From a virus (taxonomy: Duplodnaviria > Heunggongvirae > Uroviricota > Caudoviricetes), in the IMG/VR virus record IMGVR_UViG_2571042636_000009: a DNA stretch of 36,219 bases. The stretch is one strand, 5' to 3'. The stretch's first letter is position 1. Every line of letters begins with the position of its first letter. The notes beneath the pieces were generated by a model. The model was not told the origin of the DNA. It did not search any database and saw only the letters and a program-made list of their open reading frames with translations. Positions 4,752 through 16,299 of this stretch are shown one piece after another. Made by a program: the position numbers and the translations under genes.

Positions 4752-4809
4752 AAAAAGGGCGGCAGAGCAGTCACGGAGTAAAACTGATACCGCCAAACGT
4801 CACCAGAAA
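4752..4809 (-). ncRNA. dicF: DicF small regulatory RNA (ftsZ-targeting sRNA)
   Basis: Minus strand reads TTTCTGGTGACGTTTGGCGGTATCAGTTTTACTCCGTGACTGCTCTGCCGCCCTTTTT, matching the DicF sequence as I recall it; located between ydfC and dicB as in Qin. Exact ends are approximate. Confidence 0.85.
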
Positions 4810-5149
4810 ATTGATAACAGAGGGCGTTGCAGCGGGGTTGTCACTTAAGCGTATGGTCAACCTGACAACCCGGTGTCCTCAACGGGGAAGGAATAACCCC
4901 GCCATACTTACCGCCGCGCCATTTCGCGGGTTGCCACAACCGGAAGCGCACGGTCGACGAAAATTTAACGACAGGCTATCTATGAACCAGCTACCTCGCC
5001 GTGCGCTTTCGCGTTATGGTCTGACTTTTCAGGGAAATATCCTTTCAGTAAACTGTCAGTGCCGGATGCTCACCCGTGTCCGGCGCACGCACTCCACCTC
5101 ACCCGTGGAGAACTCCTTAATTACTAACCTTAGCTTTGTTGATTAGCTA

Positions 5150-5368
5150 CTAACGCGGGTATGTAATCATTCTGGCAATGCTTAATGCCGCTGCTTTTTC
5201 CAGATTGGTGATATCCTGCTCCAGAGCGGACAGATTTTCAGCCTGCTTAGCCCTGGTTTCATTGGCCCATTTCAAATCCTGCGCTGCATTAATTTTCTGG
5301 CGCATCCACTCATAAAGTTCATCATCGGTATAGTCTGGCGCGATGATGACGGGTTCTCGTTTCTGCAT
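5150..5368 (-). CDS. ydfC: YdfC (72 aa) of the dicB operon
   Basis: ORF MQKREPVIIAPDYTDDELYEWMRQ..., recognised as YdfC; correct position upstream of dicF. Confidence 0.8.
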   Translation of the reverse strand: MQKREPVIIAPDYTDDELYEWMRQKINAAQDLKWANETRAKQAENLSALEQDITNLEKAAALSIARMITYPR

Positions 5369-5397
5369 ACTGATTCCTCGCGGTGCTGTTTCGCTTA

Positions 5398-5526
5398 TCA
5401 GCCGTTAGATTTTGCCGAACTGGAAAGCGCCTGTTTAAATTCGTTGAAGCTGAGAGCTTCTTCGCCGTCGGCAAGACCTTCGAAGTATTCTTCGTAAGCC
5501 TTTTCCATGATTGTGTCGAAATCCAT
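5398..5526 (-). CDS. ydfB: YdfB (42 aa) small protein of the dicB operon
   Basis: Hand-translated minus-strand ORF MDFDTIMEKAYEEYFEGLADGEEALSFNEFKQALSSSAKSNG (not in the supplied track, too short); size and position match ydfB between ydfA and ydfC. Confidence 0.7.
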   Translation of the reverse strand: MDFDTIMEKAYEEYFEGLADGEEALSFNEFKQALSSSAKSNG

Positions 5527-5527
5527 A

Positions 5528-5683
5528 TCACTCACCTGAGTTTCTTTCCAGCCAGCGACGGGCACCATTTTCGGTTTTAAACGTTTTGCTTTTGGTATAC
5601 GTCATCGCGGTGAACGTACCGTCCTGGTTGGGGAACACGCCACATACCAGAGATTCGCTGTTGCCAAGATCGATAGTATCCAT
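5528..5683 (-). CDS. ydfA: YdfA (51 aa), first gene of the dicB operon
   Basis: Internal Met of the 78-aa track ORF gives MDTIDLGNSESLVCGVFPNQDGTFTAMTYTKSKTFKTENGARRWLERNSGE (51 aa), matching YdfA in size and position. Confidence 0.75.
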   Translation of the reverse strand: MDTIDLGNSESLVCGVFPNQDGTFTAMTYTKSKTFKTENGARRWLERNSGE

Positions 5684-5889
5684 GCTGACCTCATTTCCCC
5701 TTAACGCCGGGGTAGCGGAACAAAAACCTGCTGCATAGTTATTAAAGTTGAACCCTGCCGTCATGTTCTTACGCCTCGGGCTGGCTACTTAACCCCTGAC
5801 CACTGCCCGGTAACTAGAAGTATTGCCCTGCATTCTGTGGGGTGGGGAGAGGGAATGAATGAAGTTTAGAAAAATGAACTTTTCAGGTC

Positions 5890-5911
5890 AATGTTTTTTT
5901 ATCAAAACATT
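5890..5911. promoter_or_regulatory. Operator-like palindrome (GTTTT-N6-AAAAC) in the leader of the early-left (dicB) operon
   Basis: AATGTTTTTTTATCAAAACATT is a 22-bp inverted repeat sharing the GTTTT...AAAAC core with the sites in the repressor/cro intergenic region; located between the repressor gene and ydfA. Confidence 0.45.
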
Positions 5912-5975
5912 TTAAGCAGGCAGCTGTTAAGCCATCACCACGATGGCATACAGTTAATCAAATAGATGAGGTCGG

Positions 5976-6614
5976 TTAAATATTTTGTTGAATTTTAAAG
6001 CATACGCCCAATATGCAAGATAGATCATCCAGCATAATTGAAGGGTAGCGAGGATTCGTGGGGACTAAAAGAATATCCGGCCCTTCTATCTCCAGTTTAC
6101 GAATGACAGGTGTTGTGGTCCCTTTGGGTAAGGCAAGGACAATATTTCCTGGTTGTACGGTTCGATCGGGATCAACAAAAACTGTTGAACCATTTGGGAT
6201 GGAAACTCCCCCACCAGATGTTGACATACTGTCACTCTCTAGAACAACTGCAAAGGTATTGGCCGGGATTTCTCCGACAAGCTGCACACAAGAGGTTATT
6301 GAGGAATTTTTCATATAATCACTCCAGCTTGCTGCCTGCTGAAGTGATAGTAGCGGAACCGTTTTTATCGGCGGTAAAGATAGATCAAGCGAATCACCTG
6401 TATTTAACTCTCCTCCATTAAGAAGCCAATTTTCGTTTACTTTCAATATTTTTGCCAGTGAACTTATGTAACGCGAGGACGGCGCTCCTCCACCGTTCAT
6501 CCATTGACTTACGGAGCCTTTTGATGCGCCAGTGGCATTGACAAGGTCTTTGCCTTTCAGGTTTAGCGCATGCATACGTTGGGTTATGCGTTCAGATATT
6601 GTTTGCTTGTTCAT
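5976..6614 (-). CDS. CI-like phage repressor, full length: N-terminal HTH plus C-terminal S24 (LexA-like) autopeptidase domain
   Basis: 212-aa ORF with an HTH-like N-terminus (GASKGSVSQWMNG), a Ser nucleophile context (ESDSMS) and a downstream Lys (VIRKLE) typical of S24 peptidases; divergent from the Cro-like gene. Confidence 0.85.
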   Translation of the reverse strand: MNKQTISERITQRMHALNLKGKDLVNATGASKGSVSQWMNGGGAPSSRYISSLAKILKVNENWLLNGGELNTGDSLDLSLPPIKTVPLLSLQQAASWSDYMKNSSITSCVQLVGEIPANTFAVVLESDSMSTSGGGVSIPNGSTVFVDPDRTVQPGNIVLALPKGTTTPVIRKLEIEGPDILLVPTNPRYPSIMLDDLSCILGVCFKIQQNI

Positions 6615-6676
6615 GTTTTGATTTTAAAACACAGATGGTTTTGTTTCTTGACTTTCTTTGGTTTTGATTATTAAAC
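6615..6676. promoter_or_regulatory. Immunity-region operator cluster: three GTTTTG(A/T)TT sites spaced 23 bp apart in the divergent repressor/cro promoter region
   Basis: GTTTTGATTTTAAAAC at 6615-6630, GTTTTGTTT at 6638-6646 and GTTTTGATTATTAAAC at 6661-6676. The outer two are partial palindromes; 23-bp centre-to-centre spacing resembles lambda OR1-OR3. Confidence 0.5.
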
Positions 6677-6705
6677 TTTTGGCGTTCAGTTTTATGGAGC
6701 GACTC

Positions 6706-6948
6706 ATGAAAAAATCAGAAGTATTAGGCTATTTTGGCGGAGTTGTTAAAACAGCCGCAGCTCTAGGAACGTCAAAAACCACAGTCAGCATGTGGGGGGA
6801 AGAGGTTCCGTGGAAATGGGCGTTGCTAATTCAGGCAGTCACTGCCGGGGCGCTCAAATATGAGTTACACATACCGACGGTTGTCATTCCCGGTTCTGAT
6901 CATAATCCGCCTTCTAACCAAGGGGGGATTCATGAAAATCAAGCATGA
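6706..6948 (+). CDS. Cro-like / YdaS-family small DNA-binding protein
   Basis: 80-aa ORF divergent from the repressor, with GGAG 7 nt upstream of the ATG and an HTH-like segment (KTAAALGTSKTTVSMW). Confidence 0.7.
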   Translation: MKKSEVLGYFGGVVKTAAALGTSKTTVSMWGEEVPWKWALLIQAVTAGALKYELHIPTVVIPGSDHNPPSNQGGIHENQA

Positions 6949-7357
6949 ACACATCCGCATGGCGATGAATGCCTGGGCGCGTCCTGATGGCGAAAAAGTT
7001 CCGGCAGCTGGAATAACCCAGGCTTATTTTGAGTTGGGTATGACGTTTCCTGAACTGTACGACGACAGCCATCCGGAAGCCCTGGCTCGCAATACCCAGA
7101 AAATTTTCCGCTGGATAGAGAAAGACACCCCTGATGCAGTTGAAAAAATTCAGGCGTTGTTACCAGCGATCGAAAAGGCAATGCCACCTTTGCTGGTGGC
7201 CAGAATGCGCAGCCACAGTTCAGCTTATTTTCGGGAGCTGGTGGAGACGCGGGAGCGACTGGTGAGAGACGCTGATGATTTTGTCGCAGTGGCAATCGCC
7301 GGTTTCAATCAGATGAACCGTGGTGGCCCGGCAGGAAATGCTGTGGCAGTACATTGA
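6932..7357 (+). CDS. YdaT-like (CII-position) regulatory protein
   Basis: 141-aa ORF starting MKIKHEHI, with a strong RBS (AAGGGGGG); recalled similarity to Rac YdaT; sits in the position of lambda cII. Confidence 0.6.
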   Translation: MKIKHEHIRMAMNAWARPDGEKVPAAGITQAYFELGMTFPELYDDSHPEALARNTQKIFRWIEKDTPDAVEKIQALLPAIEKAMPPLLVARMRSHSSAYFRELVETRERLVRDADDFVAVAIAGFNQMNRGGPAGNAVAVH

Positions 7358-7428
7358 CTGACAATAGCCATATCGAATCGCTTCCGGCAACTCGTGAGTA
7401 AAAAGATTCGGTATCAGAAGAGGTGAGT

Positions 7429-8499
7429 ATGGCTAACGCCTGGCTCAGATTATGGCATGACATGCCAAATGACCCTAAGTGGCGAACAATTGCCAGGGTG
7501 TCAGGGCAGCCAATTGCAACAGTGATGGCAGTGTATATCCACCTCCTGGTGAGCGCGTCACGAAATGTCACGCGAGGTCACATTGATGTCACGACAGAAG
7601 ATTTGGCAAGTGCGCTCGACGTGACAGAAGAGGTAATTGATTCAATTTTGCAGACGATGCAGGGGCGGGTACTTGATGGTGATTTAATCACTGGATGGGA
7701 AAAACGCCAGGTGCTTAAAGAGGACAACGGCAATATTTCGCAAACCGCAAAATCTCCTGCAGAGCGCAAGAGGGCGCAGCGAGAGAGGGAAAGAAAGCGG
7801 GAACAAAATGGCGATTGTCACGGCGCGTCACGAAATGTCACGCACATGTCACGACGAGTCACGACAGATAAAGATACAGATAAAGATACAGATCAAGAAG
7901 ATCAAAACACTATGGTCCATGGCGTAAAAAACGCCACGAACCAGGCAGGGGATGTTCAGACCGTCAATCTTGGTCAGCCAGCAGGCACGACACCGGAAGC
8001 CGATTCAGCGTATGCGCTGAAAGCCGATTCGGGCGCTGTGCAGCAGGTGATGACCGCAAGGCCGGAGCAATCACACCAACTGCAGCAGCCCGAAGCCGAT
8101 TCCGCCATTCAGCGGGAAGCCGATCGGGTAGTCCCGGAAAACACCGGGCAGTCTGTGGGACGAGTGGATTATCCGGATGTGTTCGAACAGGTCTGGCGGG
8201 AGTACCCGTTGCGTGCTGGGGCAAACCCGAAGAAATCCGCTTTCAGTGCCTGGAAGGCCAGATTACGCGAGGGGGTGCCACCAGAGGCCATGCTGGATGG
8301 CGTGAGGCGTTACGCAAGATACTTGGCGGCTACCGGGAAAACGGGAACGGAATTTGTTCAGCGAGCGACGACGTTTTTTGGACCGGACCGGAATTTTGAG
8401 AACCCCTGGTTGCTCCCGGTAAGCGGCACGAACAACCAGCGTTGTGTGAATCATATTTCTGAACCGGATAACGAAATTCCGCCGGGCTTCAGGGGGTAA
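7429..8499 (+). CDS. Phage replication initiator / replisome organiser (O-like)
   Basis: 356-aa ORF after the cro/cII-like genes; N-terminal domain, charged low-complexity linker (ERKRAQRERERKRE, TDKDTDKDTD) and C-terminal domain. Contains iteron-like GTCACG repeats with about 10.5-bp phasing in the linker region, as in lambdoid ori inside O. Confidence 0.7.
   Translation: MANAWLRLWHDMPNDPKWRTIARVSGQPIATVMAVYIHLLVSASRNVTRGHIDVTTEDLASALDVTEEVIDSILQTMQGRVLDGDLITGWEKRQVLKEDNGNISQTAKSPAERKRAQRERERKREQNGDCHGASRNVTHMSRRVTTDKDTDKDTDQEDQNTMVHGVKNATNQAGDVQTVNLGQPAGTTPEADSAYALKADSGAVQQVMTARPEQSHQLQQPEADSAIQREADRVVPENTGQSVGRVDYPDVFEQVWREYPLRAGANPKKSAFSAWKARLREGVPPEAMLDGVRRYARYLAATGKTGTEFVQRATTFFGPDRNFENPWLLPVSGTNNQRCVNHISEPDNEIPPGFRG
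7553..7573. repeat. 21-bp direct repeat GCGCGTCACGAAATGTCACGC, copy 1 (iteron-like)
   Basis: Exact 21-bp match to 7824-7844; embedded in a run of GTCACG motifs at 7556, 7567, 7577 and 7588. Confidence 0.7.
7816..7900. repeat. Candidate replication origin: five GTCACG iterons with 10-11 bp spacing followed by AGATAAAGATAC tandem repeats
   Basis: GTCACG at 7817, 7827, 7838, 7849 and 7859, then a tandem 12-mer AGATAAAGATAC x2.5 (A-rich); inside the interdomain linker of the initiator gene. Confidence 0.55.
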
Positions 8500-8539
8500 G
8501 TGTTAATTTCTGGTCATGAGGTAATTTTCAGGAGGGCTT

Positions 8540-8962
8540 GTGGCAAAAGTTTTTACACAAGAAGAGCGGGAAAAAATTAAAGGACAGGTTGTTGAACTCG
8601 TACGCCAGAGTGGGCGTGAGACGTTACGGCAACTGGAAGTCAAGACAGGTGCGACAAGATATCTGATGAGCGTTCTCGCAAGAGAGCTGGTTGCCAGCGG
8701 CGATGTATGCAACTCTGGTTACGGGTTATTCCCGTCTGAACAGGCGCGTAAGGACTGGCAAAATGCCCGTAAAAAGCTCTCAAGGGCAAAGCTGAAGAAA
8801 CCATCTGCGGTTGATCCGGACCTTATCTGGTCATTACCTGACGGAGAAATACGTCGCTACGACAGGCGTCAGAACATAATCTGTCGCGAGTGCCGGAAGA
8901 GTGAAGTTATGCAGCGCATATTGTCGTTTTATCAGGGTGATGTTCGGTATTTATTGAAGTGA
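8540..8962 (+). CDS. Hypothetical protein (140 aa) in the helicase-loader position
   Basis: Clean ORF with backbone-like GC content directly after the initiator gene; no family recognised (basic, CRECRK motif). Confidence 0.5.
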   Translation: MAKVFTQEEREKIKGQVVELVRQSGRETLRQLEVKTGATRYLMSVLARELVASGDVCNSGYGLFPSEQARKDWQNARKKLSRAKLKKPSAVDPDLIWSLPDGEIRRYDRRQNIICRECRKSEVMQRILSFYQGDVRYLLK

Positions 8963-9093
8963 CGAGATTAAAGTGCATTAGTTCAGATGCAAATTGACAT
9001 TTTGTGGCACAGGGTAGAGCTAGCGTGGTTGTCCGCTTTGTGCCAATAGCGGACATTGCTGGCTCATGGTATGTTAGTTTAAGGAGGCAGGTT

Positions 9094-10116
9094 ATGCCCT
9101 GTATTTCGCTGTGGTATAATAGTTGCGCAATTGATACAAGGGAGCGTTACATCGTGAAAATTGTTTTCGAGGTTAATGGAAAGAAAGTTCCACTAAAATC
9201 TTTAAAATACATAAGCAAAAAAGATCAACTCGAAGTAATGAAAAACTGGTTCTTTGAAAACTTTGAAGATCCGGCAAATGCTTGTCCGTATGAAAGTAGA
9301 GAAGGTGGCTATGCTTACATATATGGCGGGCCGTATGATGCGAGCGAAGAACTACAATCCATCTTCGGTCAATATGTTAAATCTGAGTATATTGAGGAAT
9401 TAGTAGATGAATTACAAACACAATGTTTTGACTGGTCTGGAAACTCAAATAATATAGATGATTGGTACGATGATGATATCTACGACGCTGTAACGTCTTC
9501 CGGTAATCCGTATTTAAAATTCATTGATAATATCGATAAAATAAAAAAACTTGCAAAAGATAAAACTGAACAACAGCAAAAAAACCACTTGCTTAGTTTG
9601 CTCTACACGAATGTTATTACAGCTTTGGAAACGCTTTATGTTGAGCTATTCATTAATTCTATAGAGAAAGATGATGTCTACATAGCCAATTGTATAGAAA
9701 AAGGTAAGACTGAATTTAAAGTAAGCAAAGATATTGCTGCGTTGCCTTTCAAGGGTGAACCCATCGAGAAAATTAGGGGAGAGCTAATCAGGTCAATCAA
9801 GGAACACTTGATCAGTGCAAGCTGGCATAGCACTAAAAAGGTAATCGACCGCTATGAAGCTACATTCGATATAAAAGTACAAAAAGACTGTCCGATAGAA
9901 GCTATTGAATTGGCAACCCTCAATCGAAATCACTTAGTGCATCGTGGTGGAAAGGATAAAGAAGGGAACCTCGTAGTGATTACAGACCAGGATCTTGAAA
10001 CGCTGATTGAAAATGCATCGAACCTGGCAATTATGCTCTACAACAGTTTAAATGTAGCAACGAATAAAACCACCATTTTGCAACCAGATGACAAACCGTT
10101 CATTCATGAATTTTAA
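9094..10116 (+). CDS. Candidate defense/toxin-module protein A with a C-terminal HEPN-like Rx4H motif (predicted RNase-type domain)
   Basis: 340-aa ORF (AAGGAGG 6 nt before the ATG at 9094; alternative GTG start at 9154 giving 320 aa). Strongly AT-rich compared with the flanks. Motif RNHLVH near the C-terminus matches the HEPN Rx4-6H signature. No named family recognised. Confidence 0.6.
   Translation: MPCISLWYNSCAIDTRERYIVKIVFEVNGKKVPLKSLKYISKKDQLEVMKNWFFENFEDPANACPYESREGGYAYIYGGPYDASEELQSIFGQYVKSEYIEELVDELQTQCFDWSGNSNNIDDWYDDDIYDAVTSSGNPYLKFIDNIDKIKKLAKDKTEQQQKNHLLSLLYTNVITALETLYVELFINSIEKDDVYIANCIEKGKTEFKVSKDIAALPFKGEPIEKIRGELIRSIKEHLISASWHSTKKVIDRYEATFDIKVQKDCPIEAIELATLNRNHLVHRGGKDKEGNLVVITDQDLETLIENASNLAIMLYNSLNVATNKTTILQPDDKPFIHEF
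9112..9120 (+). promoter_or_regulatory. Candidate extended -10 promoter element (TGgTATAAT) at the 5-prime edge of the AT-rich insert
   Basis: TGGTATAAT is a perfect extended -10; its position would fit the GTG start at 9154. It conflicts with the ATG start at 9094, so either the element or the longer start is wrong. Confidence 0.35.
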
Positions 10117-10131
10117 TAGCGCAGGTCATAC

Positions 10132-11133
10132 ATGGATATTCGCACACGAAAGACAAAATTTTTAGAGTCGTTAGATTCAACTGAAGTGATACGCAAAGCA
10201 GTAAGTCTCGCTATAGATTGCATTATTGATAATCATAATAGTAATGAAGATACCCCCTTAGTTATTACCAGCTATGATGATCTCTGTAGAATCCAGGTGC
10301 TAAATTATGTACAGGAGTTTTGCGAAGCTGCATTCCCTGATATGGATGAATATTACTTTAGTCCTAACATACTTCGCATCAACGGCAAGACTAGTGAAGA
10401 AGCTTGTATTAACTTAATTAAACTCTTAAGAAGTACAAAAGGCATGCTATTCTGGTCCGATGCCCCATCGTGGTTCGCTAGTCTCCCCGACGGATTATTC
10501 CATGTTGTTAACATTGATCAAAAAATCGTTACTCGCGGCCTTAATAAGAAAAACTCTAAGCCGACAATAATCAATAAAGATTACAGTGTAGATACACTAC
10601 TATCAGAGCTATTTTTGAATGGCGCACACATGGAGCAACCCAACGTACACAACGTTTCTGAGGGAAACATGAAGTTCTATGATGAATGCCATGCTGGATT
10701 AATCAGACCAATACCCGCTCCAATAGGCGCGTCATACGATGAAGAGATCACAATTAATTCTCCAGATTGGCAAAAGCTCGCGTGTGTAGCTTTACGCCGC
10801 TATCAGTCGAAGGAATGTCATGACGGAATGCAATGGGATACAACCGATCATGGTTGGACTGATGTAATCGCGTATCCATTCGTCGAAGAAATACAATCAA
10901 TGGATAATAGTGGTTATCGACAATGTTTAGTTGGGCTGGTCACAATAAACAATTCAAATGCAAATTCTCCGTACCTATCTACCGTTTGGATACATCCATT
11001 TTATCGCAGGAGAGGGTTATTAAGTAAGTTATGGCCAAAATTACAAGAGTTATATGGAAGTAACTTCGAAATTGAGCGACCTAATGAAAATATGAAAGCA
11101 TTTCTGAAAAGTGCGAAACACGCAGATTACTAA
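10132..11133 (+). CDS. Candidate defense/toxin-module protein B with a C-terminal GNAT-like acetyltransferase motif
   Basis: 333-aa ORF starting 15 nt after the stop of protein A (operon), AT-rich. The C-terminal segment LVGLVTINN...STVWIHPFYRRRGLLSKLW resembles a GNAT beta4-alpha3 motif; the N-terminal roughly 190 aa is unrecognised. Confidence 0.55.
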   Translation: MDIRTRKTKFLESLDSTEVIRKAVSLAIDCIIDNHNSNEDTPLVITSYDDLCRIQVLNYVQEFCEAAFPDMDEYYFSPNILRINGKTSEEACINLIKLLRSTKGMLFWSDAPSWFASLPDGLFHVVNIDQKIVTRGLNKKNSKPTIINKDYSVDTLLSELFLNGAHMEQPNVHNVSEGNMKFYDECHAGLIRPIPAPIGASYDEEITINSPDWQKLACVALRRYQSKECHDGMQWDTTDHGWTDVIAYPFVEEIQSMDNSGYRQCLVGLVTINNSNANSPYLSTVWIHPFYRRRGLLSKLWPKLQELYGSNFEIERPNENMKAFLKSAKHADY

Positions 11134-11244
11134 TTTATGAATCAGTCTGTGGAGTTAGGGTTGGTGTCAACAAGTAGGGTAAGAGCCTCAACGTGATGCT
11201 ATGCCGACCTGCTCCCTGAGAATTCACACAGAAGGCTGCTAGCA

Positions 11245-11535
11245 ATGTCTACAGATCGCTCAAAGCGGACTAGAAGGTTAGCTTGCGTCGGACTTGGCGT
11301 ATTTAAAGAAGTGCTGGTGGTGACTGGTTGTTGTGTTCCATTTCTACAGAACAAAATCACAGAAACTATACCCAATAGTTATATTGAATCAATGATGAGA
11401 CAGCCTCATATTTATCAGGACTGGTGTACGTCCAATACAGGAGGTTGTCGTGCTGGTTCTCAAATGTGCGCTAGCTATTGCGGCTGTAATGGCAATTTAT
11501 TGTCTTGCTGTTGTTCTTACGGATCGCCTTTCTGA
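11245..11535 (+). CDS. Hypothetical cysteine-rich small protein (96 aa)
   Basis: ORF with an AGAAGG RBS-like element about 8 nt upstream; the C-terminal 35 aa hold 10 Cys (GGCRAGSQMCASYCGCNGNLLSCCCSYGS). It could be spurious. Confidence 0.3.
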   Translation: MSTDRSKRTRRLACVGLGVFKEVLVVTGCCVPFLQNKITETIPNSYIESMMRQPHIYQDWCTSNTGGCRAGSQMCASYCGCNGNLLSCCCSYGSPF

Positions 11536-11750
11536 TTGATTTTATATTGGCGAGGTGACGTGAGTTAAGTAGAATTGCTGCGGGTGCTTGAGGCTATCTG
11601 CCTCAGGCATGAACACCAAAGGCAGATAGAGAAAAGCCCCAGTTAACATTACGCGTCCTGCAAGACGCTTAACATTAATCTGAGGCCAATTTCATGCTAG
11701 ACACATGTAGGTTAGCCTCTTACGTGCCGAAAGGCAAGGAGAAGCAGGCT

Positions 11751-11906
11751 ATGAAGCAGCAAAAGGCGATGTTAATCGCCCTGATCGTCATCTGTTTAAC
11801 CGTCATAGTGACGGCACTGGTAACGAGGAAAGACCTCTGCGAGGTACGAATCCGAACCGGCCAGACGGAGGTCGCTGTCTTCACAGCTTACGAACCTGAG
11901 GAGTAA
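11751..11906 (+). CDS. hokD: Hok-family membrane toxin HokD (RelF), 51 aa
   Basis: Translation MKQQKAMLIALIVICLTVIVTALVTRKDLCEVRIRTGQTEVAVFTAYEPEE recognised as HokD/RelF; the in-frame upstream extension from 11694 is read as a mok-like leader. Confidence 0.9.
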   Translation: MKQQKAMLIALIVICLTVIVTALVTRKDLCEVRIRTGQTEVAVFTAYEPEE

Positions 11907-11975
11907 GAGACCAGGCGAGGGAGAAATCCCTCGCCACCTCTGATGTGTCAGGCATCCTCAATGCACCCGCACTTA

Positions 11976-11998
11976 ACCCGCTTCGGCGGGTTTATTTT
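11976..11998 (+). terminator. Rho-independent terminator after hokD
   Basis: Hairpin CCCGC-TTCG-GCGGG followed by a T-run (TTTATTTTAT). Confidence 0.6.
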
Positions 11999-12364
11999 AT
12001 CTGTAAATATTTTTATAAAAATAATGCCCACACACAGCATAAAACAAAAAGTATCACAGATAAAAAAGGAGCGTAATGTGCAGATTTGTTGTTTTCCATA
12101 TTTACTCACTTTAACATAATCAAAATTGATATGGTTGTTGTTTTGGTGGTTTCAAACGAGATGTTATGGTGATCTGGTAAAATTGCATAACATTAAAATT
12201 TAATTTATCTAATCGCTTTTAATAATAAGCGTTGTGTTTATCCCAACAATCTGTTGTTTGACTTTTATTCCATTAATGTAGGGGCTTTACACTGGAACCA
12301 GTTTATTTATACTTTATACGCCAGCCTGAACAACTGGCACCTGCTGCGCCAGCAGAGACAACCG

Positions 12365-12643
12365 ATGGCGCACGATACCAAATTACACAATTCTGATGAT
12401 TCTGCCGTCTTTGCCAGCAGGTGCGGACGGCGTTTTCATGTATTCAAATCGGACTGGTTCCAGCATCCACCATGCACTGAAGAGCAGGCTGAATGGATAA
12501 TTCAGTGTTACCGCAGGCGCGGATACGAGGTTAAAAAAGCCCTTAGCCTCGACTACCGTCACTGGATAATCTCAGTCAGATTGCCTTACTCCGAACGCCC
12601 ACCGCGTCCGTCCCACACATTCCAGCAACGCATCTGGAGGTAA
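12365..12643 (+). CDS. rem: Rem-like small protein (position of rem in Qin)
   Basis: 92-aa ORF from an internal ATG (MAHDTKLHNSDDSAVF...), directly upstream of and overlapping the ydfU start; identity from recalled gene order hokD-rem-ydfU. Confidence 0.5.
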   Translation: MAHDTKLHNSDDSAVFASRCGRRFHVFKSDWFQHPPCTEEQAEWIIQCYRRRGYEVKKALSLDYRHWIISVRLPYSERPPRPSHTFQQRIWR

Positions 12644-12644
12644 C

Positions 12645-13694
12645 GTGCGGGTATTACTTCGACCTGTTCTGGTACCGGAACTCGGGCTGGTGATCGTTAA
12701 GCCGGGCCGTGAATCCATGCCGGTATTCCACAATACCCGGTTACTGGTGGAGCCGGAACCGAAAAGCATGCGTAATCTGCCGTCCGGGGTCGTTCCTGCC
12801 GCTCGCCAGCCGCTGGTGGAAGACAAAACATTGCTGCCGTTTTTCAGTAACGCACGGGTGATTCGTGCTGCTGGTGGTGCTGGTGCATTGTCTGACTGGC
12901 TGTTGCGCCATATTAAATCCTGCCAGTGGCCACACGGCGATTATCATCACAGCGAAACCGTCATTCACCGTTATGGTACCGGCGCAATGGTGTTGTGCTG
13001 GCACTGCGACAACCAGCTGCGTGACCAGACATCCGAATCACTCGAGCAACTTGCTCATCAAAACCTGTCAGCATGGATGATTGACGTCATCGGTCACGCA
13101 ATAAGCGGTACGCAGGAGCGTGAATTATCTCTGGCTGAATTATCCTGGTGGGCGGTCCGCAATCAGGTGGCGGACGCGCTACCGGAAGCGGTATTACGTC
13201 GCTCGCTGGGATTACCAGCGGAAAAAAACTGCTCGGTGTACCGCGAAAGCGACATCGTACCGGGAGAGCAGACCGCCACCAGCATATTGAAACAGCGCAC
13301 AAAAAATCTTGCACCGTTGCCTCACGCCCACCAGCAACAAAACCCATCACAGGAAAAAACGGTGGTAAGCATCACCGTTGATCCTGAGTCTCCGGAATCT
13401 TTCATGAAGCTGCCTAAACGTCACCGTTGGGTTAAGGAGAAATACACACGCTGGGTTAAGACACAGCCGTGTGCTTGCTGCGGTATGCCAGCCGACGATC
13501 CGCATCATCTGATTGGTCACGGGCAGGGCGGAATGGGAACCAAAGCACATGATCTCTTTGTGTTGCCTTTGTGCAGAAAGCATCACGACGAGTTGCATAC
13601 GGATACCGTGGCATTTGAAGAGAAGTATGGCTCCCAACTGGAGCTGATTTTTCGATTTATCGATCGCGCGCTGGCAATTGGTGTGCTGGCCTAA
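12645..13694 (+). CDS. ydfU: YdfU (DUF968 family) prophage protein
   Basis: 349-aa ORF, same length as K-12 YdfU, with C-terminal Cys/His-rich motifs ([23 protein letters not shown]); lies between rem and the Q antiterminator. Confidence 0.7.
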
Positions 13695-13711
13695 TTTTGT
13701 GGAGTAAGTTG

Positions 13712-14089
13712 ATGCGTGATATTCAGATGGTTCTTGAGCGTTGGGGGGCATGGGCGGCTAATAATCATGAAGATGTGACCTGGTCGTCCATTGCCGCCGG
13801 TTTTAAGGGATTAATTCCTTCAAAAGTAAGATCTCGTCCGCAATGCTGTGACGATGACGCGATGATCATTTGTGAATGTATGGCTCGCCTGAAAAAAAAC
13901 AACAGCGATTTACATGATTTATTGGTGGACTATTATGTCGGCGGCATGACTTTTATGGCGCTTGCACGTAAGCATGGGCGATCTGATTGTTGGGTTGGCA
14001 GGATGCTCCAGAAAGCTGAGGGCGTAGTGGAGGGCATGCTGATGGTGTTGGATCTCCGATTGGAGATGGATGCTGATTGTTCGAAATAA
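13712..14089 (+). CDS. quuQ: Late-gene antiterminator Q (phage 82 / QuuQ type)
   Basis: 125-aa [21 protein letters not shown]..., with GGAGTAAG RBS; recognised as QuuQ-like; located just upstream of the late/lysis region. Confidence 0.8.
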
Positions 14090-14188
14090 TTAAAGGAAAA
14101 GTTGCTGTCTGATTTTCATTAGTCTAACATTTTAAATGTTGGAATCGCAACGTAGTTATTATCATATAACAGCTTGTTTCCTGATTTA

Positions 14189-14217
14189 GCCAGCCTCCCC
14201 AAAGGCTGGTTTTTTTC
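14189..14217 (+). terminator. Rho-independent terminator downstream of Q (candidate tR-prime-like late terminator)
   Basis: Hairpin GCCAGCC-TCCCCAAA-GGCTGG followed by TTTTTTT; about 100 bp after the Q stop, where lambdoid phages carry PR-prime, qut and tR-prime. Confidence 0.55.
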
Positions 14218-14481
14218 TAATAAGTATCATTTCGGGTGGGGATTTTATTGTTTAACCCATAATAGTTCATTGACATTGAATCCCAACTTTTGAGCGGTAC
14301 GCACATAGTCTGCTTTTACATTATCTGGAATAGTTTGGGTCCTTGCCAGAATCCATAGGTATTCTCTGTTCGGACCACTGACAAGAGCATACTTATACTC
14401 ATCATCCAGCTTGATTACATTATAGCCACCATAGAAGGGGCCAAAAAACGAAACTTTCAACGCTGCAGTTTTAGTATCTCC

Positions 14482-14490
14482 AGTAAAGTA
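14482..14490. repeat. 9-bp target-site duplication AGTAAAGTA (left copy) flanking IS10
   Basis: Identical 9-mer immediately outside both IS10 termini (14482-14490 and 15820-15828). Confidence 0.9.
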
Positions 14491-14536
14491 CTGATGAATC
14501 CCCTAATGATTTTTATCAAAATCATTAAGTTAAGGT

Positions 14537-14605
14537 AGATACACATCTTGTCATATGATCAAATGGTTTCGCCAAAAATCAATAATCAGACAACAAAATG
14601 TGCGA
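14537..14605 (-). ncRNA. IS10 RNA-OUT antisense RNA (approximate coordinates)
   Basis: Placed from known IS10 organisation (RNA-OUT is antisense to the transposase translation start near the outside end); not independently verifiable here. A GATC Dam site at 14558-14561 lies in the pIN region. Confidence 0.4.
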
Positions 14606-15806
14606 ACTCGATATTTTACACGACTCTCTTTACCAATTCTGCCCCGAATTACACTTAAAACGACTCAACAGCTTAACGTTGGCTTGCCACGCCTTACTTG
14701 ACTGTAAAACTCTCACTCTTACCGAACTTGGCCGTAACCTGCCAACCAAAGCGAGAACAAAACATAACATCAAACGAATCGACCGATTGTTAGGTAATCG
14801 TCACCTCCACAAAGAGCGACTCGCTGTATACCGTTGGCATGCTAGCTTTATCTGTTCGGGCAATACGATGCCCATTGTACTTGTTGACTGGTCTGATATC
14901 CGTGAGCAAAAACGGCTTATGGTATTGCGAGCTTCAGTCGCACTACACGGTCGTTCTGTTACTCTTTATGAGAAAGCGTTCCCGCTTTCAGAGCAATGTT
15001 CAAAGAAAGCTCATGACCAATTTCTAGCCGACCTTGCGAGCATTCTACCGAGTAACACCACACCGCTCATTGTCAGTGATGCTGGCTTTAAAGTGCCATG
15101 GTATAAATCCGTTGAGAAGCTGGGTTGGTACTGGTTAAGTCGAGTAAGAGGAAAAGTACAATATGCAGACCTAGGAGCGGAAAACTGGAAACCTATCAGC
15201 AACTTACATGATATGTCATCTAGTCACTCAAAGACTTTAGGCTATAAGAGGCTGACTAAAAGCAATCCAATCTCATGCCAAATTCTATTGTATAAATCTC
15301 GCTCTAAAGGCCGAAAAAATCAGCGCTCGACACGGACTCATTGTCACCACCCGTCACCTAAAATCTACTCAGCGTCGGCAAAGGAGCCATGGATTCTAGC
15401 AACTAACTTACCTGTTGAAATTCGAACACCCAAACAACTTGTTAATATCTATTCGAAGCGAATGCAGATTGAAGAAACCTTCCGAGACTTGAAAAGTCCT
15501 GCCTACGGACTAGGCCTACGCCATAGCCGAACGAGCAGCTCAGAGCGTTTTGATATCATGCTGCTAATCGCCCTGATGCTTCAACTAACATGTTGGCTTG
15601 CGGGCGTTCATGCTCAGAAACAAGGTTGGGACAAGCACTTCCAGGCTAACACAGTCAGAAATCGAAACGTACTCTCAACAGTTCGCTTAGGCATGGAAGT
15701 TTTGCGGCATTCTGGCTACACAATAACAAGGGAAGACTCACTCGTGGCTGCAACCCTGCTTACTCAAAATCTATTCACACATGGTTACGTTTTGGGGAAA
15801 TTATGA
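14598..15806 (+). CDS. IS10 transposase
   Basis: 402-aa ORF MCELDILHDSLYQFCPELHLKRLNSL..., recognised as IS10 transposase; starts at IS position 108. Confidence 0.95.
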   Translation: MCELDILHDSLYQFCPELHLKRLNSLTLACHALLDCKTLTLTELGRNLPTKARTKHNIKRIDRLLGNRHLHKERLAVYRWHASFICSGNTMPIVLVDWSDIREQKRLMVLRASVALHGRSVTLYEKAFPLSEQCSKKAHDQFLADLASILPSNTTPLIVSDAGFKVPWYKSVEKLGWYWLSRVRGKVQYADLGAENWKPISNLHDMSSSHSKTLGYKRLTKSNPISCQILLYKSRSKGRKNQRSTRTHCHHPSPKIYSASAKEPWILATNLPVEIRTPKQLVNIYSKRMQIEETFRDLKSPAYGLGLRHSRTSSSERFDIMLLIALMLQLTCWLAGVHAQKQGWDKHFQANTVRNRNVLSTVRLGMEVLRHSGYTITREDSLVAATLLTQNLFTHGYVLGKL

Positions 15807-15819
15807 GGGGATCTCTCAG

Positions 15820-15828
15820 AGTAAAGTA
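15820..15828. repeat. 9-bp target-site duplication AGTAAAGTA (right copy) flanking IS10
   Basis: Identical to 14482-14490. Confidence 0.9.
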
Positions 15829-16299
15829 TGCTTTACCTTCGCTCTCGCTCCATTTGTTTTTCGTTGGATCGTATCCACGGTTAAGTACGCGAATCCCTCC
15901 GTCGTTCCGTTTTTCATAAGTAGCGCTGACCTGTTCCAGACCACGTTCGAACCAGTTCTCGAGGCGAGCTATTTCATACCATTTTCCGAGGTAGCGGTTG
16001 GCGTCAAAATTTGTAATCGGCTGCACACCTTTAGGTGGTGTCGGGGCCTTACATGCTATAAGAGTGAAAGAGAGTGCAATGCCAGTCAACACAGGCCATA
16101 ACTTCATAATAAATCCTGTACTTTTGATAGTTGAGAGTAAGTATGAAAGATAGATGAGTACGACCGATCACTTAAAGAACTTTCCTACTATATTAGGAAT
16201 AGTCAATAACAGAAAAATTGTCAGTGATGAAGCCAGAAAGGCAATTTAGTCCGTGCACTACAAAGTTTATGTGTTAATGAATTAGTCAAGGGGGAGGAA

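Follow-up and report, generated by a model that had tools for sequence, protein, structure and literature searches.

An IS10 insertion in the Blc-like lipocalin gene of a lambdoid prophage of Escherichia coli

The virus record IMGVR_UViG_2571042636_000009, a stretch of 36,219 nucleotides to which we refer as the window, holds a Blc-like lipocalin gene interrupted by a complete copy of the insertion sequence (IS) IS10. Our reading, to which we give a probability of about 0.97, is that the blc-like lipocalin moron of an Escherichia coli prophage, a lambdoid one at the Qin site, was hit by transposition of a single IS10, whose sequence is of the IS10-Left type. The element is 1329 bp long and lies on the plus strand at 14491..15819, with its outside end at 14491 and its inside end at 15819. 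Two copies of the 9-bp sequence AGTAAAGTA flank it, the left one at 14482..14490 and the right one at 15820..15828, as found by reading of the sequence and by script.

IS10 and Tn10 are excised in a cut-and-paste manner by a DDE transposase, which cuts the target with a 9-bp stagger. In the scenario proposed here, the transposase would have excised an IS10-Left-type element by cut and paste and made such a cut in the lipocalin gene, and subsequent gap repair would have generated the duplication of AGTAAAGTA.

The interrupted lipocalin gene and its empty sites

The minus strand carries an open reading frame (ORF) that starts at position 16107, encodes MKLWPVLTGIALSFTLIAC...SEGKAYFT and then continues through 14 codons of the IS inside end to position 15775. 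The 5' fragment of the lipocalin gene (15820..16107), which by ORF reading and in silico excision comprises the signal peptide, the lipobox and residues 1-96, is joined in this way to 14 foreign residues in a chimeric ORF of 110 amino acids. The 3' fragment (14245..14490, also on the minus strand) starts with the duplicated YFT codons and supplies residues 97-174 and the stop codon; read from 14490 to 14245, it begins with GDTKTAALKVSFFG... and goes on with GDTKTAALKVSFFGPFYGG... up to the stop. Deletion in silico of the IS and of one copy of the repeat yields a single ORF of 174 amino acids with neither a premature stop nor a frameshift. The duplicated base pairs code for Y94-F95-T96 of the lipocalin, and the gene is split after codon 96.

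The restored protein has the features of a lipoprotein of the Blc subfamily. A pattern match places a LIAC lipobox at residues 16-19, ending in Cys19, with Lys at position +2. With the two fragments joined, Pfam Lipocalin_2 (PF08212) aligns end to end (146 bits), and the NCBIfam model of the Blc subfamily, NF007786, is matched at 312.6 bits (cutoff 267) over positions 1-174 of 176. The protein also matches phrog_2809 over its full length, and 97 of 155 residues (62.6%) are identical to the solved Blc chain 3mbt_A (E-value 8e-67). By these comparisons the target is a Blc-subfamily lipoprotein gene.

The outer-membrane lipoprotein Blc encoded on the E. coli chromosome (PDB 1QWD, 2ACO and 3MBT) belongs to the same length class, carries the lipobox Cys and matches the lipocalin fold family over its full length. 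However, over the 155 aligned residues its identity to the restored protein is only 62.6%, and the gene of the latter is prophage-borne, away from the blc locus. This identity value and the position of the gene between phage Q and holin led us to reject chromosomal blc as the target; judged by its sequence and surroundings, the interrupted gene is a paralogue-like phage version of Blc and not the housekeeping gene. The closest counterpart is WP_000780584.1 (phrog_2809), the blc moron of lambdoid coliphages: it is encoded by DNA identical to the restored ORF and occupies the same place between Q and the lysis genes, whereas the gene in the window is interrupted after codon 96. Related lipocalin loci with 93-97% identity are present in sequenced lambdoid phages, and a study of lambda-like phages from the gut describes blc as a moron that more than 50% of them carry (PMC6969025).

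Empty sites are abundant. The restored locus of 872 bp has a 100% identical counterpart in at least 30 complete E. coli genomes. It is present in 1,146 of the 5,426 complete E. coli genomes searched, and in all of them its annotation is lipocalin family protein or blc. In strain 13P460A the empty site carries an intact coding sequence of 525 bp for WP_000780584.1, a 174-amino-acid "lipocalin family protein", and in a blastn comparison of the window with this site the alignments of the two flanks share exactly 9 bp, which excludes flanks from different loci. REL606 is a further strain with an empty site. The sequence AGTAAAGTA stands in a single copy at empty sites and occurs, on both strands, nowhere in the window beyond its two copies; a chance repeat was rejected on these grounds, the probability that a specified 9-mer would match being about 4e-6. 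Because the excised locus is identical to intact sites and the flanks overlap by 9 bp, the repeat is a true target-site duplication and the IS the only lesion of the lipocalin gene.

A first-pass annotation, made from the letters of the window, had described a prophage-borne Blc-like lipoprotein gene, split by an IS with a perfect 9-bp target duplication, whose fragments would rejoin into an ORF of about 174 amino acids once this sole inactivating lesion was removed. It had also pointed to related prophages lacking the IS as a means of checking the flanks. All of this is borne out by the excision in silico, by the subfamily match and by the collinear alignment with the 13P460A empty site, and the location between Q and holin agrees with a prophage gene.

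Identity of the IS10 copy

Reading of the sequence and a script place the start of the element at CTGATGAATCCCCTAATGA and its end at GAGGGGATCTCTCAG, or, in short form, CTGATGAATCCCC... at one terminus and ...GGGGATCTCTCAG at the other. The terminal inverted repeat is imperfect: our count from the alignment gives agreement at 17 of the first 23 positions between CTGATGAATCCCCTAATGATTTT and the complement of CTGAGAGATCCCCTCATAATTTC. The element thus has the length of about 1329 bp, and the outside and inside ends with imperfect inverted repeats of about 23 bp, by which an IS10 is recognized.

The transposase gene (14598..15806, plus strand) is an uninterrupted ORF of 402 amino acids. It matches Pfam DDE_Tnp_1 (87 bits) and passes the NCBIfam model of the IS4 family, NF033591 (402 bits, cutoff 152), and none of the catalytic residues D97, D161 and E292 is missing. 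Its start is overlapped on the minus strand by the antisense RNA of IS10, RNA-OUT (14536..14605), which matches Rfam RF00240 with 97.3 bits (gathering score 41) and is predicted to fold into a long stem-loop (-21.3 kcal/mol, z = -4.0). GATC (Dam) sites are found at IS positions 67 and 1320, in the pIN -10 region and at the inside end, respectively; the regulatory role of these sites in IS10 is described in PMC5006887.

Many Tn10-bearing plasmids, among them R100, the reference plasmid of Tn10, carry copies that match the element with 100% identity over all 1329 bp. The identical arm of R100 (NC_002134.1, 36132-37460) adjoins a gltS-like gene (jemA), and we take it, following the Tn10 layout that Chalmers and co-workers reportedly published in 2000, to be the left arm. 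The termini, the RNA-OUT region and the 402-amino-acid transposase allele are therefore shared at every position with IS10-Left of the tetracycline-resistance transposon Tn10. The present copy differs from it in its setting, for it stands alone in a chromosomal prophage instead of forming one arm of Tn10. The NCBI annotation pipeline labels the R100 IS10-Left as 'IS4-like element ISVsa5 family'.

The other arm of R100, beside the tetC gene and a tetD-like gene, has the same length and organization and 98.9% nucleotide identity to the element, but is 15 nucleotides and 4 amino acids apart from it. The nucleotide differences from this IS10-Right fall at IS positions 24, 25, 27, 47, 83, 107, 410, 425, 903, 1249, 1268, 1271, 1272, 1281 and 1300, with no mismatch between 904 and 1248, and those in the protein are V266I, L381S, A389T and A398V; relative to IS10-Right, the transposase here has the IS10-Left residues I266, S381, T389 and V398. 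IS positions 1000-1230, which include the outward promoters pIII and OUTIIp, have been reported to be alike in both arms (PMC11481808), and our list of differences agrees with that report. Because the copy is identical to the R100 arm beside gltS/jemA and 15 nucleotides and 4 amino acids off the other arm, we classify it by sequence as IS10-Left, and its identification as IS10-Right was rejected.

These results uphold the description in the first-pass annotation of a 1329-bp element with IS10 termini and an intact 402-amino-acid transposase. Its further statement that the IS may still be mobile calls for a qualification: the intact ORF and ends stand, but mobility, though plausible, does not follow from intactness alone, the allele being that of IS10-Left, on whose activity published reports conflict.

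Age of the insertion and rival explanations

A 2.6-kb query spanning both junctions found this IS10 junction in no other genome among the 5,426 complete E. coli genomes. The chimeric ORF of 110 amino acids is on record on one public contig only, AYQJ01000018.1 of assembly GCA_000503715.1; this contig is 100% identical to window positions 9775-22107 and is presumably the source contig. The perfect duplication, the identity of the flanks to empty sites and of the IS to its reference, and the single occurrence lead us to infer a recent, strain-specific event, and the recent date already suggested in the first-pass annotation is consistent with these counts. Among 50,697 deposited phage records, IS10 was found in one, EF120459.1 (CL707, a derivative of lambda), so that its presence in packaged phage genomes appears to be rare in that collection.

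Could the arrangement have arisen without transposition into the gene, by homologous recombination between two IS10 copies, or could the element be an arm of a composite Tn10? Many E. coli genomes do contain several IS10 copies (median 2, up to 45 places per genome). However, the same 9-bp repeat is present on both flanks, which rejoin to a sequence 100% identical to the empty sites; each IS10 end sequence occurs only once in the window, and no tet genes lie nearby. The collinearity of the flanks and the lack of a second IS10 end in the window led to the rejection of a composite Tn10 or an IS-mediated rearrangement, and we consider such an origin extremely improbable. Another explanation concerns the nature of the element, which would be a fully active IS10-Right, or an active IS10 of a generic kind, as mobile as the canonical element. 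In its favour, the element has an intact 402-amino-acid ORF, intact ends and RNA-OUT and a complete DDE triad, copies of this sequence type are scattered over many different genes of E. coli chromosomes, and a de novo transposition of IS10L, into a plasmid in NEB5alpha, has been documented (PMC11481808). The copy is nevertheless identical to the IS10-Left arm and separated from R100 IS10-Right by the differences listed above, and functional transposase is credited to IS10-Right (PMC5006887) and that of IS10-Left is reported as inactive or weak (PMC11148124). Full activity thus seems unlikely. Instead, the element, of IS10-Left type, would keep the requirements in cis for transposition, namely both ends, the RNA-OUT region, the GATC sites at 67 and 1320 and the DDE triad, while its further movement is probably infrequent or dependent on an IS10-Right copy elsewhere in the cell, because its transposase corresponds to the weak IS10-Left allele. 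Residual mobility is plausible, yet an intact ORF by itself does not imply it.

A further possibility is that the insertion is adaptive. IS10 would then hit the lipocalin moron, or the late-operon leader of the phage, repeatedly and under selection; the lipoprotein would be silenced, for example, or the expression of the downstream ybgA-like, AraC-like or lysis genes altered from outward IS10 promoters. This idea draws on an IS10 insertion in the prophage lipocalin gene of E. coli ET5 (NZ_CP101014.1, positions 18615-19943 of the locus examined), the sole full-coverage match to the 2.6-kb junction query. The prophage type, the gene, the orientation of the IS and the presence of a 9-bp duplication are the same as in the window. 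In ET5, however, the duplication is CACATAGTC, equivalent to window positions 14302-14310 and thus shifted by 180 bp towards the 3' end of the gene, and the element is of the IS10-Right type, its transposase (WP_001339197.1) having the same accession as that of the R100 right arm. With its different insertion site, ET5 was rejected as an instance of the same insertion, and it represents an independent event; its annotation retains a truncated ORF of 170 amino acids named 'blc'. Both known lipocalin insertions share the orientation of Q-dependent late transcription, and the outward promoters pIII and OUTIIp near the inside end (PMC11481808) face the ybgA-like gene here. Two independent IS10 landings in one gene of 525 bp do deserve notice. 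Set against this are the frequencies: only two events are known, versus 1,135 complete genomes bearing the lipocalin gene, in 1,042 of which the match covers at least 80% of it. Moreover, IS10 occupies 6,615 places in 1,903 of the 5,426 complete genomes, and by a rough estimate the 4,490 chromosomal ones among these make one or two chance landings in 525 bp unremarkable. In a spread sample of the gene-bearing genomes the gene was mostly full-length; the few partial matches, still annotated as lipocalin, look like mosaic alleles rather than IS insertions, and recurrent disruption of the gene was rejected on this basis. We see no statistical case for selection of lipocalin insertions. We regard an adaptive origin as very improbable, and the stronger proposal, that the blc-like moron in the lambdoid late-operon leader is a recurrently selected landing site of IS10, as a shade less credible still. 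Were that proposal true, a costly prophage lipoprotein might be silenced, the ybgA-like and AraC-like morons might be driven from outward IS10 promoters, or the IS might be carried inside phage particles and expressed on induction.

Transposition of a single IS10-Left-type element into the lipocalin moron remains the explanation that we prefer, although some points weigh against it or against parts of it. A consensus for IS10 hotspots, NGCTNAGCN, is said to have been established by Halling and Kleckner in 1982; AGTAAAGTA fits only three of its six specified positions and, because of this poor fit, the target is not a preferred IS10 site, though such sites are known to be used. Fit to the consensus reflects a preference and is not a requirement for IS10 membership. 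In addition, the literature on IS10-Left activity is in conflict, an inactive arm in one report (PMC11148124) standing against a transposing one in another (PMC11481808). Nothing contradicts the insertion itself.

Prophage context and consequences

The gene for the phage antiterminator Q (13697..14089, plus strand; Pfam Phage_antitermQ, 171 bits) lies immediately upstream of the interrupted locus. About 100 nucleotides past its stop codon, a hairpin with a T-run resembling an intrinsic terminator (14188..14211, plus strand) may correspond to a tR'-like terminator, and a hairpin search detected a second strong structure of this kind (18448..18469, plus strand) ahead of the holin gene. Divergent from the lipocalin gene is a ybgA-like moron (16300..17259, plus strand) with 2-thiouracil desulfurase and DUF1722 domains, annotated as YbgA family at the empty site. 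The lipocalin, ybgA-like and AraC-like genes are situated between Q and holin, bracketed by the two terminator-like hairpins, and thus make up a moron block inside the late-operon leader. The position between Q/tR' and the lysis cassette that is typical of lambdoid morons was found both in the window and in the annotated genomes. We infer that the lipocalin moron is dispensable for the phage cycle.

The prophages of ET5 and 13P460A lie beside rspB and have the gene order integrase - excisionase - exonuclease - ydfD - dicB - ... - hokD - rem - ydfU (DUF968) - Q, followed by lipocalin (minus strand) - ybgA-like - AraC-like - holin - lysozyme - Rz - cspI - ... - terminase - portal - capsid - tail. 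Collinear with them, the window begins inside the integrase gene and does not reach rspB. This collinearity identifies the host element as a Qin-site lambdoid prophage of E. coli.

Other parts of the window show features of their own. The early-left region encodes a DicF antisense small RNA (4757-4808, minus strand; Rfam, 76.7 bits), which in related prophages has dicB and ydfD homologues as neighbours. A sok antitoxin RNA with a hok-type (hokD) toxin locus is found at 11582-11756 (plus strand; Rfam sok, 119.9 bits), and a 5' untranslated region of the cspA thermoregulator type precedes the prophage cold-shock gene cspI (20690-21105, plus strand; Rfam, 111 bits). Compared with the 13P460A prophage, the immunity and replication region (5030-12347) is mosaic, with only short patches aligning, whereas the remainder is 98-99.9% identical; a CI-like repressor of the S24-peptidase type (5976-6614, minus strand) and a replication initiator (7423-8499) both fall within the mosaic region. 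The Rz-like gene is interrupted by an IS3 in 13P460A, and no such insertion is seen in the window.

Between a DUF977 gene and hokD/sok, the window also contains a two-gene cassette without assigned function (9004-10116 and 10132-11133, both on the plus strand). Its first gene encodes 370 amino acids (phrog_17908) with a sub-threshold match to a HEPN/RES N-terminal domain, and its second encodes 333 amino acids (phrog_16994) with a sub-threshold GNAT match; PADLOC and PDB sequence searches returned no match for either ORF. Because the counterpart slot in ET5 holds an AIPR abortive-infection gene, this may be an uncharacterized defence or moron cassette.

For the lipocalin, the insertion leaves a 96-residue N-terminal part extended by 14 IS-encoded residues and a C-terminal part devoid of a promoter, and the protein is in all likelihood non-functional. 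The IS appears to lie in the Q-dependent late transcription unit, with its transposase gene co-oriented with that transcription, and antiterminated late transcription probably reads through it; lysis and structural genes of the prophage therefore need not be affected. Transcription of the ybgA-like gene might be raised by the outward promoters at the inside end, which point towards it, while at the outside end the promoter pOUT would face the 3' lipocalin fragment.

The event, a routine insertion of an IS into an accessory prophage gene that was already known, is not new in kind. Loss of one accessory lipoprotein has no evident wider consequence, and the relevance of the finding lies mostly in annotation: the locus should read blc-like lipocalin::IS10 (pseudogene), with its 9-bp duplication. 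The lineage of assembly GCA_000503715.1 can be recognized by the junction, a strain-specific marker. As a recent IS insertion whose empty site is known, the locus is also a clean textbook case, and it provides an example of a solo copy of the IS10-Left type residing in a prophage. If this prophage is inducible, the IS could in principle pass between hosts in a phage particle.

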